From a virus, in the IMG/VR virus record IMGVR_UViG_3300026320_000001, positions 83,694 to 147,693 of that record: a stretch of DNA of 64,000 bases, one strand, 5' to 3'. Below are positions 6,426-61,322 of the stretch, piece after piece. The translations under genes and the position numbers were made by a program. The notes under the pieces were generated by a model. The model did not search any database. It worked only from the letters and a program-made list of their open reading frames with translations, and was not told where the DNA came from. Numbering within the stretch: the stretch's first letter is position 1; each line of letters begins with the position of its first letter.

Positions 6426-6833
6426 TTAAGAATTGTTCATTTGAACAGTAATAGCACCAATAGCAAATAAAACTGTTGTTGCAGATGCAACGGCTCTTGA
6501 TGGTGTCAATACGTCAAAAAACCAAATATTTCCTGATGTCAATGCATCAGAAATAAATACATAAGTTATAGTTCCCCATGATGCCGTACTTTCTGCAAAT
6601 GTTACTGCCGCTGAATTTGTTAAAATTCCATTTGATGCTGTTCCCCAATTTGTTTTATCATTTACCAGTGCAACTCTGGCATAAGAACCACCAGAAGGTT
6701 CAGTTGCTCCCGTACCATCAATAGCAATAGCTGTTGTTGATAATCCAAAATACATTGTTCCGGGTGGAGTATATGCAACCGAACCAAAATTTCTATCTAT
6801 AATTTTATTTGCGCTAAAATATGTAATCGCCAT
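6426..6833 (-). CDS. small tail/fibre-associated structural protein
   Basis: YFGLST..EPSGGSYARV..NSAAVTF..WGTIT..DALTSGN pattern common in siphophage tail modules. Confidence 0.75.
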   Translation of the reverse strand: MAITYFSANKIIDRNFGSVAYTPPGTMYFGLSTTAIAIDGTGATEPSGGSYARVALVNDKTNWGTASNGILTNSAAVTFAESTASWGTITYVFISDALTSGNIWFFDVLTPSRAVASATTVLFAIGAITVQMNNS

Positions 6834-6834
6834 T

Positions 6835-7758
6835 TTATTTTTTCTCCTTTTTTATTCCATTTGGAAAATTTAATTTTCTTGATAAATCATTCTGAATAAC
6901 ATAATTATCATATGATATTGCAGAATCTATTTCATTTTTAAAATATCCCAAACATATTCTTTTATTTTTTATTGTTATTCTAGTTCTCCATAAATTACAA
7001 CGAGTATCAAAAATAACACCAATATAAATACTCGATTGTCTTGAAATATGTTCTTGTTCTAATTTATCAATTATTTTTTGATTTTTTTTAATTTCTTTTT
7101 TCGTTATTTTATTTAATTTTGATTTATCATATCCATAATATTTTATTAATCCATCATTATATGCTAAAGCCGCAGAAATTTCAGTTTTATGATAGCCGAG
7201 AGAATGTTTTATTTTTAAATACATTATTTCTGCGTGCCATGAATTATTAAATCTATCCCAATAAACACCGACATATTTACTTGATGTATTTGAGTGTTTA
7301 GAACCTAAACTTGAAATAACCCTAGAATCTTTTTCTTTTTGAGATTGTTTTCTTCCCTTCGTATTGGTATTACCCATCATTGCAATGGACATTTTTTTGT
7401 TTCTCTCTTTTGTATGTCTTCTTCCAAGCATCGGAGCTATTCCACCCGGAGAAATATTATATCCATTTGGTTTTTGAGATTTTAATTTTTTTATCAAATG
7501 AATCTCTCTTATGTGTAATTTTTCCACTTTGCAGAATTCTAAAACACCAATTTCAAAATTTTCTTCACCATATTTATTCCAAGAATTTTGTAATATTAGA
7601 CAATCATCATCATTTTTCCTCAATTCTCTGAGATGTCCCATTATTCTATTCCTCAAATCTTTAGCTTGACCAATATATAATTTTTCATTTATTATGTTTT
7701 TAAAATAATATATTCCAGACTTGCCTTCTAAATCTTCAAATAAATTTATCTTTTTCAT
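6835..7758 (-). CDS. free-standing GIY-YIG homing endonuclease with NUMOD3-like and two AP2-like domains
   Basis: SGIYYF...LYIGQ, GYN..GG, GRRHT, SKYVGV...LGY...AALAYN. Confidence 0.88.
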   Translation of the reverse strand: MKKINLFEDLEGKSGIYYFKNIINEKLYIGQAKDLRNRIMGHLRELRKNDDDCLILQNSWNKYGEENFEIGVLEFCKVEKLHIREIHLIKKLKSQKPNGYNISPGGIAPMLGRRHTKERNKKMSIAMMGNTNTKGRKQSQKEKDSRVISSLGSKHSNTSSKYVGVYWDRFNNSWHAEIMYLKIKHSLGYHKTEISAALAYNDGLIKYYGYDKSKLNKITKKEIKKNQKIIDKLEQEHISRQSSIYIGVIFDTRCNLWRTRITIKNKRICLGYFKNEIDSAISYDNYVIQNDLSRKLNFPNGIKKEKK

Positions 7759-59197: not shown

Positions 59198-59410
59198 TTA
59201 ATGATTCATATAAGCAGGCTTATTTTCCCCGCTCATAAGTTTGTTAAGGTTGCGGATAACTCCGGGAGACACTTCGCCATGATTAGGTACGCTTAAGGTT
59301 GGCTTGCCATTGCACTTAAAAATACGATGACTCGAACCATTTCCGGGTTGCTCTATGTATCCTTGAGATTCAATCTGTTTTATAAAATCTTTTGTTCTAA
59401 CCGGCTTCAT
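59198..59410 (-). CDS. hicA: HicA-family mRNA interferase (orphan)
   Basis: 70 aa; GY...GSSHRIFK...LSVPNH.EVSPGVIR. Confidence 0.85.
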   Translation of the reverse strand: MKPVRTKDFIKQIESQGYIEQPGNGSSHRIFKCNGKPTLSVPNHGEVSPGVIRNLNKLMSGENKPAYMNH

Positions 59411-59543
59411 TATGTTTTATCCTTATTTGAATATAGATTTTAGATTGTTTCCATTATACCACTTTTAAAATTTTGGCAAGGTTTTTAACCTTAAAAAATC
59501 GCCCATAGATTCTATGCGAATGCGTATAACCATTTCACCTAGT

Positions 59544-59576
59544 AAAAAAATAGCCTCCCGAACGGGGAGGCTATTT
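59544..59576 (-). terminator. intrinsic terminator
   Basis: AAATAGCCTCCC-GAACG-GGGAGGCTATTT with a U run on the minus strand. Confidence 0.85.
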
Positions 59577-59584
59577 CAAAAAAG

Positions 59585-59788
59585 TTATAAAATCTTTTTT
59601 GTTTTTTTATATTGTCTTTCATCCACTTCGATTCCATAATGGCCGATTAATGGACTATAACCAGAGCGACAACGAATCCCGGACTCTTTCAATAGTTGCA
59701 TGGCATAAGATTTGCTCATACCACCTTCCGATGATTTTAAGCAGTTAATCGTTATCCAATTTTTAACAATAACCTTTTTGTTTTTCAT
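59585..59788 (-). CDS. hypothetical protein
   Basis: 67-aa ORF in operon context. Confidence 0.6.
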   Translation of the reverse strand: MKNKKVIVKNWITINCLKSSEGGMSKSYAMQLLKESGIRCRSGYSPLIGHYGIEVDERQYKKTKKIL

Positions 59789-59792
59789 CGGA

Positions 59793-59918
59793 TTATTTTA
59801 CCGCTTGATAATTGTGCAATGCGTTAACGTATGCAATGCGATTCGATTCACTATGATTCTTACGATAGTTTTTTAGAGCATTGACCATTGCAGAATAATA
59901 GATTTGTTTTGTTGACAT
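59793..59918 (-). CDS. 41-aa hypothetical protein (not in the ORF track)
   Basis: AAGGT RBS; MSTKQIYYSAMVNALKNY...YVNALHNYQAVK*. Confidence 0.55.
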   Translation of the reverse strand: MSTKQIYYSAMVNALKNYRKNHSESNRIAYVNALHNYQAVK

Positions 59919-59963
59919 TTTTACCTTTTTATAAATGGCATGTAACGAACATGCAATCGGGAA

Positions 59964-60155
59964 TCAATCTTCGGTTATTTCATAACTAGATTTGAATTTC
60001 TCAGGATGTTTTGATTCCTTAAACATAAGCCTGAGTCCATCTTGCAAGCAGATTGTTTTTAGTTTTGGATTTGATTCTTTTGCTTGCTTGATTATTGTAT
60101 CTGTTTTTATATCAGTAAAAAACTTTTGCTTACAATCGGGGCAAATTCTTAACAC
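59964..60155 (-). CDS. small CxxC protein
   Basis: GGAGGT RBS, GTG start, CPDC. Confidence 0.65.
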   Translation of the reverse strand: MLRICPDCKQKFFTDIKTDTIIKQAKESNPKLKTICLQDGLRLMFKESKHPEKFKSSYEITED

Positions 60156-60214
60156 TGGTTTTATACCTCCATTCTTTCTATATAAGTCTTATTAGTGGCA
60201 ATAAATATTTTTTA

Positions 60215-60418
60215 TTATTCGTTATCCGCTGGTATCCATTTATTACCATTTTTTACTAACACTTGAAAAGAATGAAAATACCATCCTCGCCCGTTTTTAT
60301 CACCCGCCCACCCTCTATTTTTTTCTTCATCCCATTGTGAAACTATAAAAATTTCGCCTGAGTTATCAGAATAATCAGAAGTAAATTTTATTTTACTTCC
60401 ATTTTTAATTATAACCAT
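60215..60418 (-). CDS. small SH3-like hypothetical protein
   Basis: GGAG RBS before MVIIKNG; enclosed by stem 3. Confidence 0.65.
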   Translation of the reverse strand: MVIIKNGSKIKFTSDYSDNSGEIFIVSQWDEEKNRGWAGDKNGRGWYFHSFQVLVKNGNKWIPADNE

Positions 60419-60501
60419 TTTATTATCTCCAGTTATTGCCACTGGTAAAACTTATATAATTTTTTATTCATTCATTGTTAGAATAAACAAGCGATAGATT
60501 A

Positions 60502-60795
60502 TTATTTGCTTAAACGTTTTGCCATTGATTCTTTGATTGACTCGTAATTATCCCATGAATTAAACATAGAACATAGAGTCATTGCTTCAGATTCTTCGGG
60601 TTTGATTCCGAGTCTCTCTTCGTTATACCATTTAACCCATTCCTGAGATTGCAATCCGTAAGTAGTGGGGTAGTAACCAGTCTCACCAAATTTAACCACT
60701 CCAATTTCCGCAACAAATTCACCATCATTATTTTTTGTTTGAGTCGAAATGTTATACATCATACATCTTTCGGGATTCATTTTTAACTTTTCCAT
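60502..60795 (-). CDS. hypothetical phage protein
   Basis: VKFGETGYY...N..LGI...AM..CSMF.W; enclosed by stem 2. Confidence 0.75.
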   Translation of the reverse strand: MEKLKMNPERCMMYNISTQTKNNDGEFVAEIGVVKFGETGYYPTTYGLQSQEWVKWYNEERLGIKPEESEAMTLCSMFNSWDNYESIKESMAKRLSK

Positions 60796-60868
60796 TCTGC
60801 TTGTTTACTCTGGCAATGAATAAATAATATATTTTTACCGATTGTTAGAATAGACAAACTATATTTAT

Positions 60869-61177
60869 TTATTCTGCGATTAATTTTTGTAATGCTTTTA
60901 AAAATCTTTTAGATACTCCGGACTTATTTAATTTCATTTCGCCATGTATCAAGGCTGAATAACCACCAACACTGTTTGAGTCTGTCCCCCATACACTCCC
61001 GGCTGAAGTTGTCGGAAGTTGTCGGATTATGTCAACGTCATATTCTGCTTTGATATAAGCCTCTTTATTGTTTGCCTCAAAAGTTTTTGTTAGAGTGATG
61101 ATATTTTCGTGAATGTTGATTCTCACGTTCGCCATTTTGCAATACATAAAAAAGGCTTTTACATCTACAATTATCAT
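60869..61177 (-). CDS. hypothetical protein
   Basis: Start MIIVDVK preferred, because the upstream extension runs through the stem arm; enclosed by stem 1. Confidence 0.7.
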   Translation of the reverse strand: MIIVDVKAFFMYCKMANVRINIHENIITLTKTFEANNKEAYIKAEYDVDIIRQLPTTSAGSVWGTDSNSVGGYSALIHGEMKLNKSGVSKRFLKALQKLIAE

Positions 61178-61294
61178 TATAGACTCTCTTTTCTTTTGTC
61201 TATTCTGGCAATCGGTAAAAATATTATTGTAATCTTGCAAATTCGCCCGCCGGGTCTACCGGACAATTCGTAAGATATTGTTATGTATACAGTT

Positions 61295-61322
61295 ATTATA
61301 CAGATAACAAGCGAAGAGTCAA
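61295..61322 (-). promoter_or_regulatory. sigma70-type promoter for the stem-containing operon
   Basis: TTGACT-16-TATAAT. Confidence 0.6.

Follow-up and report, generated by a model that had tools for sequence, protein, structure and literature searches.

Long double-stranded processing sites are a familiar feature of bacterial RNA. In rrn operons, the 16S and 23S rRNAs are each enclosed by a long-range helix, the RNase III stalk, and these helices follow one another along a single polycistronic RNA. RNase III cutting of phage early mRNA is itself classic, as early sites in SPO1/SP82 also illustrate. In T7, the host polymerase makes a polycistronic transcript that the host's RNase III cleaves at sites between the genes (R0.3–R1.3), maturing and protecting the mRNAs (PMC8708148, PMC6938266); the sites are local intergenic hairpins, often nicked only once, and leave a 3' hairpin. 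In Bacillus subtilis, mRNAs too contain long-range stems that RNase III cuts (PMC11780869), and the hbs 5'- and 3'-UTRs pair with each other (PMC5737220), but these helices are single and irregular, and often initiate decay or span only 14 bp.

Here we describe a phage locus in which three consecutive small genes are each enclosed by a private near-perfect stem, all with the same internal mismatch. By analogy, its geometry appears closest to that of rRNA processing stalks, with which it has in common consecutive long-range helices around one gene each in a polycistronic RNA and a fit to the 22-bp RNase III footprint, and its purpose may be closest to T7 early-RNA processing. The enclosed units differ from those of rrn operons in being protein-coding phage genes, and there is no boxA CTTTGAAAAC arm. 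Unlike in T7, the two ends of each gene form the helix, which would leave an end-paired product, and in contrast to the B. subtilis cases the stems form a tandem array of near-perfect helices with a common motif. In the literature searched (most subscription papers lie outside it), we found no description of tandem gene-enclosing stems in phage mRNA, and to that extent an earlier sequence-only reading was right that no phage equivalent has been described, the classic T7 precedent for RNase III cutting as such notwithstanding.

The phage genome and its setting

The DNA analyzed is a 64,000-nt window, to which all plain coordinates below refer, and it lies on a contig (C4) of 147,646 bp and 28.5% GC in an assembly whose other large contigs have 41–43% GC. 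Because its ends overlap by at least 50 nt, C4 is a complete, circular phage genome. Its gene content includes terminase, portal, tape measure, a tyrosine recombinase and 27 tRNAs, together with a YonV-like protein that recalls SPbeta-like phages. Shine-Dalgarno motifs precede 61% of the phage genes (11% in shuffled sequence), and the phage has 32 promoters of the TTGAC-TAnAAT type, about 6-fold over shuffled. The co-binned bacterium, whose rRNA operon looks Bacteroidota-like in our reading, shows no Shine-Dalgarno enrichment (5% vs 4.5% shuffled). Since Shine-Dalgarno use (61% vs 5%) and promoter type differ between the two, the phage was probably mis-binned with this 41–43% GC genome, and that bacterium is probably not its host. 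The relatives of the YonV-like protein on named GTDB contigs all fall in Bacillota (6/6, ~35% identity). Over 5.3 kb, the sequence has a 100% identical counterpart in a JGI metagenome assembly, which may come from the same sample. No RNA run was listed as containing the stretch.

Several other features of the assembly were recorded alongside the locus. The tyrosine recombinase gene is at C4:123751–124599 (L254:12–860), and the phage may be temperate or may use the enzyme for dimer resolution. Outside the window, C4 encodes an RNA repair set (L251:16–1113, L252:13–2018, L253:15–1487, L255:15–698, L256:14–904) of two ATP-dependent RNA ligases, a PNK with an HD domain, a Ro60-like DUF2828 protein, a poly(A) polymerase/CCA-family enzyme and RlaP. 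RtcB was not found in the phage, a soft negative given that the profile search used also missed both ligases, which hmmscan detects at scores over the Pfam threshold. A zinc-dependent cytidine/dCMP deaminase-family gene (PF00383; weak MafB19-like match) is at C4:24328–24801 (L411:9–482). The co-binned bacterium carries several low-complexity, heptamer-like inverted repeats 300–700 nt apart (on C1, C5 and C10; for example C5:127639–128091 and C1:696595–697329), which we take to be of the kind that flanks four-helix-bundle genes.

Layout of the operon

The genes and stems lie on the minus strand in an operon-like arrangement of a near-consensus promoter, a leader hairpin, three stems, three unenclosed ORFs and a terminator. 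The promoter, of the sigma70/sigmaA type (TTGACT-16-TATAAT at 61295..61322; 11/12 consensus), is one of those 32 and would drive the operon, with the transcript starting near 61288. A hairpin at 61232..61276 is predicted in the 5' leader before stem 1 (−15.3 kcal/mol for the fold of 61222–61292). The predicted transcript is roughly 1.75 kb long and would be ended by a putative intrinsic terminator at 59542..59577 (hairpin plus U run, −22 kcal/mol fold), a site absent from the list produced by the pattern scan. The three ORFs without enclosing stems (59585..60155) are small and belong to the same predicted transcript. No Rfam family reached its gathering score in 54–64 kb of the window. A HicA-family toxin gene is located at 59198–59410 on the same strand, and no HicB was recognized among the neighbors scanned.

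The loop of each stem holds one ribosome-binding site (RBS) and one ORF, placed just inside. Stem 1 has its 5' arm at 61195..61224, with the CC of the mismatch at 61208–61207, and its 3' arm at 60829..60858, with the AA at 60846–60845; it encloses gene 1 (60869..61177; 102 aa), which has 5 known family members and no Pfam or PHROG match. Stem 2 pairs 60799..60827 (CC at 60813–60812) with 60464..60492 (AA at 60479–60478) around gene 2, a member of the widespread phage family phrog_10280. Gene 2 was originally delimited as 60795–60502; we keep the end at 60502, and the start is more likely at 60780, where the gene callers place it, giving a product of 92 rather than 97 aa. Stem 3 pairs 60433..60458 (CC at 60445–60444) with 60179..60204 (AA at 60193–60192) around gene 3 (60215..60418; 67 aa). 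The 5' arm of stem 3 has an alternative local hairpin (60408–60460; CCAGU/ACUGG) over the gene 3 RBS, which is borderline against shuffled sequence (fraction 0.05).

AlphaFold2 models of the first two products have pLDDT values of 88 and 94, and fold searches gave no clear match for either (best Z 4.9 for gene 1 and 3.0 for gene 2). The gene 3 product is probably an SH3/KOW-like beta-barrel phage protein, judging from its model, whose TM of ~0.7 to KOW/SH3-like models is a lead only.

The three stems and their common mismatch

The sequence and geometry of the stems, their pairing potential and the covariation among the three copies can be read directly from the DNA. All six arms lie where the sequence-only reading had placed them, and consecutive stems are indeed separated by only 1 and 5 nt. 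Stem 1 is 30 bp long (16 outer bp, a 2×2 C.A/C.A mismatch and 12 inner bp), stem 2 is 29 bp (14 + 2 + 13, with two G.U pairs) and stem 3 is 26 bp (13 + 2 + 11, with one G.U pair). The mismatch, 5'-RCCAG-3' facing 5'-CUAAY-3', recurs in all three as had been described.

The three stems are not a product of chance. A whole-genome inverted-repeat search, proposed earlier as a check, ranks them first to third of all long-range stems found on either strand of the 147.6-kb contig. Within the 3.38-Mb assembly, these are the only three sites where the CCAG/CUAA motif is flanked by pairing sequence. Across 138 composition-preserving shuffles of the phage, stems scoring at least as high as the weakest of the three arose at 0.24 per genome, with one equal to the best. 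Because such stems are this rare in shuffled genomes, and these three abut, enclose genes and have one motif in common, the array is far beyond chance.

Each arm pairs best with its own partner, as had been claimed: on the mRNA strand, cognate duplexes reach −34.3, −31.0 and −27.3 kcal/mol, vs −14.9 kcal/mol for the best non-cognate one, a preference of at least 16 kcal/mol for each arm. The claim of covarying arms was likewise borne out among the three copies, with 5 double-sided, pairing-keeping changes between stems 1 and 2, 13 between stems 1 and 3, and 10 between stems 2 and 3. When the copies are aligned on the mismatch, the few further changes are to G.U, and no pair outside the fixed CC/AA is broken. 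Only the CC/AA and the adjacent AG/CU are invariant among the stems; the remainder drifts. Stems 1 and 2 have most of an 18-bp core in common and probably derive from one copy, and stem 3 resembles them in little besides the motif. All three stems are present in both the MFE and the centroid fold. In the full transcript, stems 1 and 2 have predicted pairing probabilities of 0.93–1.0; for stem 3 the prediction is 0.96 in a short transcript and 0.1–0.4 in longer ones, where local hairpins compete.

RNA-level and DNA-level readings of the arms

That the arms act in the mRNA had been argued from their G.U pairs, and this argument proved weak. All nine non-Watson-Crick positions are transitions, and each is therefore a G.U in one strand and an A.C in its complement. 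The CC/AA mismatch itself turns into a tandem G.U when the plus strand is read, and the plus-strand duplexes (−40.2, −28.8 and −28.9 kcal/mol) are as stable as those of the mRNA strand. The G.U pairs thus do not decide between the strands. The case for action in mRNA rests instead on the layout, a promoter followed by stems that each contain an RBS and an ORF, which fits that reading.

The same lack of an energetically favored strand, with all arm differences being transitions, is what one might expect if the arms were the ends of DNA cassettes, that is, inverted repeats for inversion, excision or single-gene capture (inverton-like, integron-like or as a single-stranded DNA hairpin), perhaps served by the phage tyrosine recombinase. 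The private arms of each gene and the presence of that enzyme in the phage would also suit such a role. The conserved part of the arms is nevertheless central, where transposon ends are conserved at their termini; the spacers of 1 and 5 nt hold no target-site duplication, there is no local attC-type hairpin, homologs of genes 1 and 2 occur elsewhere without arms, and the composition of the enclosed genes is ordinary for the phage. Contigs from four DNA runs (depth 2–5) contain no inverted or deleted joints and no sequence variants at the locus, a weak argument given that contigs drop rare variants. We regard DNA cassettes as distinctly improbable.

Two specific DNA elements were considered and rejected. 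Terminal inverted repeats of a transposon or MITE do not account for outer ends that are private and AT-rich, or for 1- and 5-nt spacers with no duplication. An integron cassette does not account for arms that pair across the gene rather than locally, and the only tyrosine recombinase found is ~30 kb away. As a group, the DNA-element readings fit worse than the mRNA reading.

Predicted processing by an RNase III-type enzyme

The explanation we lean towards, and hold to be somewhat probable, is that the stems are RNase III-type processing sites that cut the message into single-gene pieces with paired ends. RNase III binds ~22 bp, needs ~11 bp of helix to either side of its 2-bp dyad and requires A-U or U-A at proximal-box position 2, where a conserved glutamine makes contact (PMC3867540); this position is D/D' in the notation of PMC6212723. 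The helix lengths around CC/AA (16/12, 14/13 and 13/11 bp) conform to this rule. In three registers every stem keeps 11 bp or more to either side, and of these only the one centered on CC/AA has A-U at D/D' in 6/6 half-sites, for which chance at the local base composition is ~0.1, with stems 1 and 2 not independent; the other two registers have A-U in 4/6 and 2/6 half-sites. In our mapping of positions, the invariant A-U, G-C and W on the gene side would match the proximal box favored by Aquifex RNase III (PMC3074117).

The dyad is the atypical part of the site. The two central positions need not pair in vitro, yet in E. coli in vivo they are paired in ~90% of double-cut sites, mostly as G-C (PMC6212723), and here a tandem C.A mismatch occupies them in 3/3 stems. 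B. subtilis RNase III sites show no clear G-C preference at these positions. No central 2×2 CC/AA was seen in the 16S and 23S stalks of the co-binned Bacteroidota-like bacterium or in the 16S stalks of about ten Bacillota. The mismatch might restrict or block cutting. Next to the site, A-U is present at B/B' in 4/6 cases, with G-C at the outer B of the first two stems; if B corresponds to pb4, as in our mapping, this pair would inhibit the E. coli and Aquifex enzymes and may weaken the second cut in these two stems, leaving single nicks.

The same observations raise the prospect that the stems are never cut, and instead serve as RNA clamps that insulate folding and stop exonucleases, with CC/AA blocking RNase III (or allowing only binding or a single nick) or being read by a protein of phage or host. 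Besides the pairing of E. coli sites in vivo (PMC6212723), it is relevant here that a G-C beside the site inhibits and that target-site mismatches can limit cutting to one strand (PMC3867540), and that the 5'/3'-UTR pairing of B. subtilis hbs inhibits endonucleolytic cleavage (PMC5737220). Any mismatch would suffice as a block, however, and yet CC/AA and AG/CU are invariant, and pairs compatible with the proximal box are kept at 6/6 D/D' positions. On this evidence we judge uncut clamps unlikely.

If the stems are RNase III-type sites, as we favor, then transcription, the enzyme, its cut sites and the stabilization of the products are steps that we infer as follows. Host RNA polymerase would start from the promoter at 61322, and each 3' arm, as it emerges, would pair with its own 5' arm, leaving the RBS and ORF in the loop of a 26–30 bp helix. 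A host enzyme of the RNase III family would bind this helix with CC/AA at the 2-bp dyad; neither a family search nor phmmer, queried with the RNase III of the co-binned bacterium, found one encoded by the phage, a soft result in that the family search missed known phage ligases. Following the rules of cleavage, the enzyme would cut at RCC^AG and, probably less efficiently, at CUAA^Y (in stem 1, CC^AG and CUAA^C). Three single-gene mRNAs of ~362, 334 and 252 nt would be released, together with linkers of 33 and 34 nt. Each unit would start with AG, end with CUAA and be closed at its ends by 11–13 bp of stem, beyond which two nucleotides, AA, would overhang; in the predicted units, the closing stems are 96–99% paired. 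RNase J and PNPase/RNase R act poorly on ends of this form, in which the 5' end is paired and recessed and the 3' end overhangs by 2 nt. Because end-paired units would resist these enzymes, the likely gain is that the genes expressed first in an infection have stable mRNAs, each translated on its own.

Mini-III, which matures pre-23S rRNA at the consensus (G/A/U)(A/U)CC^(U/A)(C/A/U)(G/A/U) (PMC4357697), offers a further comparison. The 5' arms read RCC^A, which contains the CC^W core in the same register, but the partner is AA and not GG, position −3 is G in 2/3 arms (A only in arm 3) and position +2 is G in 3/3, off consensus. We rejected a Mini-III site proper, which calls for a paired GG in a regular helix, on the ground that CC faces AA. 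Two other enzymes were also set aside. HicA, which had been suggested as a candidate nuclease, drew no evidence in its favor, and HicA enzymes are not known to cut long helices with a stagger. The phage deaminase was considered as an editor that would convert C to U in the mismatch and was dismissed, as the protein is more simply a dCMP-type deaminase and has no link to the stems.

Predicted folding of the start regions bears on another proposal, a translational switch like those of type I toxin mRNAs, in which the 5' arm hides the RBS until the 3' arm pairs with it and the gene is complete. Local hairpins are predicted in the start regions of genes 1 and 3, and their opening energies, 11.7 and 7.9 kcal/mol, respectively, drop to 8.6 and 4.4 kcal/mol once the long stem forms. 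These effects are no better than those of shuffled arms (fractions 0.21, 0.60 and 0.05), they are absent for gene 2, and they leave the fixed mismatch unexplained, and we consider such a switch extremely unlikely.

Archaeal pre-rRNAs, with their bulge-helix-bulge motifs and circular forms, resemble the locus in that a stem surrounds the unit and bears a constant internal motif, and the phage has ligases of its own. The bulge-helix-bulge geometry invoked by analogy is absent, however: the stems contain a symmetric 2×2 internal loop rather than 3-nt bulges 4 bp apart, the host is bacterial, and no splicing endonuclease was identified. Circularization, which had been offered as one outcome, finds no backing beyond the presence of those phage RNA ligases. 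In its fullest form this idea would have one of the phage's ATP-dependent RNA ligases seal the 5'-phosphate and 3'-hydroxyl of each cut unit to give a circular mRNA, with the flanks perhaps spliced. RNase III leaves ends that are directly ligatable, the phage has genes for two RNA ligases (one of them Rnl1-like), PNK, RlaP and a Ro60-like protein, and the resulting junction, ...CUAA-AG..., would consist exactly of the invariant bases and could form a UAAA loop closed by C-G. The ligases, though, are encoded ~20–35 kb away, their usual role is tRNA repair in a phage that has 27 tRNAs, and the bulge-helix-bulge motif is missing. We therefore think it very unlikely that the units are cut and ligated. 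Equally hard to credit is the broader proposal of an expression format in which an RNase III-family enzyme excises each early gene at a CC/AA dyad left unpaired on purpose, the product persisting as an end-paired mini-mRNA or being ligated by the phage into circular mRNA.

Distribution in related phages

The expectation that relatives would have conserved arms was not borne out. Protein-seeded scans of IMG/VR with genes 1 and 2 and two neighbors returned no relatives, blastn found none in INPHARED, and a DNA-pattern search of IMG/VR with the arm junction and arm core gave only chance-level matches. Homologs of gene 1 (L001–L005; 39–42% identity) and of gene 2 (L070–L081; 46–58% identity) have no enclosing stem. 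In one of these (L070), the gene 2 homolog leads an operon in the same position beside a YonV-like gene, still with no stem. No convincing CCAG/CUAA stem is present in some 160 loci, 2.2 Mb in all, that surround genes for YonV-like proteins, the best of which has 57% identity; the locus of that best match (L082) has the same HicA-containing leftward block and also lacks such stems; its HicA gene (L082:14435–14668) lies in that early block with its own promoter. Since neither the homologs of genes 1 and 2 nor the YonV-like loci have stems, the arms do not travel with these genes, which counts against the earlier suggestion of a gene-cassette signal.

Other long-range stems were noted during these scans. 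Beside a YonV-like gene, a leftward gene is enclosed by a weak candidate, a ~24-bp stem (L069:7364–8073, minus strand) with a single C.A 14 bp from the inner end and an RBS just within the loop; its 3' arm lies in AT-rich DNA, and the stem may therefore be chance. A YonV relative has two more weak candidates, a 32-bp stem that spans a group of small genes (L085:16330–17579, plus strand) and an 11 + 2×2 + 16 bp stem enclosing 83 nt of structured non-coding sequence that directly precedes a small gene (L085:20418–20558, minus strand). Unrelated viral contigs contain near-perfect inverted repeats of 26–50 bp, 400–630 nt apart (L020:3995–4606, L021:6563–7174, L329 near 6655–7350, and L367, the last with 34-bp arms and a 410-nt loop), with AGGAGG in an arm of the L020/L021 repeat. 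An unrelated phage with a gene 2 homolog (L078:2100–3700) has intergenic spacers of 80–130 nt between its early genes, which contain a recurring CCAGCCAGACGG-like repeat and small hairpins.

Implications

The analogy to rRNA stems drawn in the sequence-only reading survives as the best reading in its central part, as helix length, mismatch position and the D/D' pairs fit RNase III and the layout fits an mRNA; no orthologous stem was found in relatives. The fixed CC/AA dyad is a new detail and a testable one. A C.A/C.A pair held at the dyad poses a clean question about the specificity of the RNase III family, and three private stems with one internal motif lead to exact predicted cut sites and product sizes. 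If circularization did take place, the locus would give bacteria a naturally occurring circular mRNA, built on a socket into which unrelated genes can be fitted. If the processing that we favor is correct, the phage would have applied the layout of rRNA excision to protein-coding mRNAs, producing single-gene messages with paired ends. This would be an undescribed way of stabilizing the first transcripts of infection, and it would provide a portable design for stable bacterial mRNAs.
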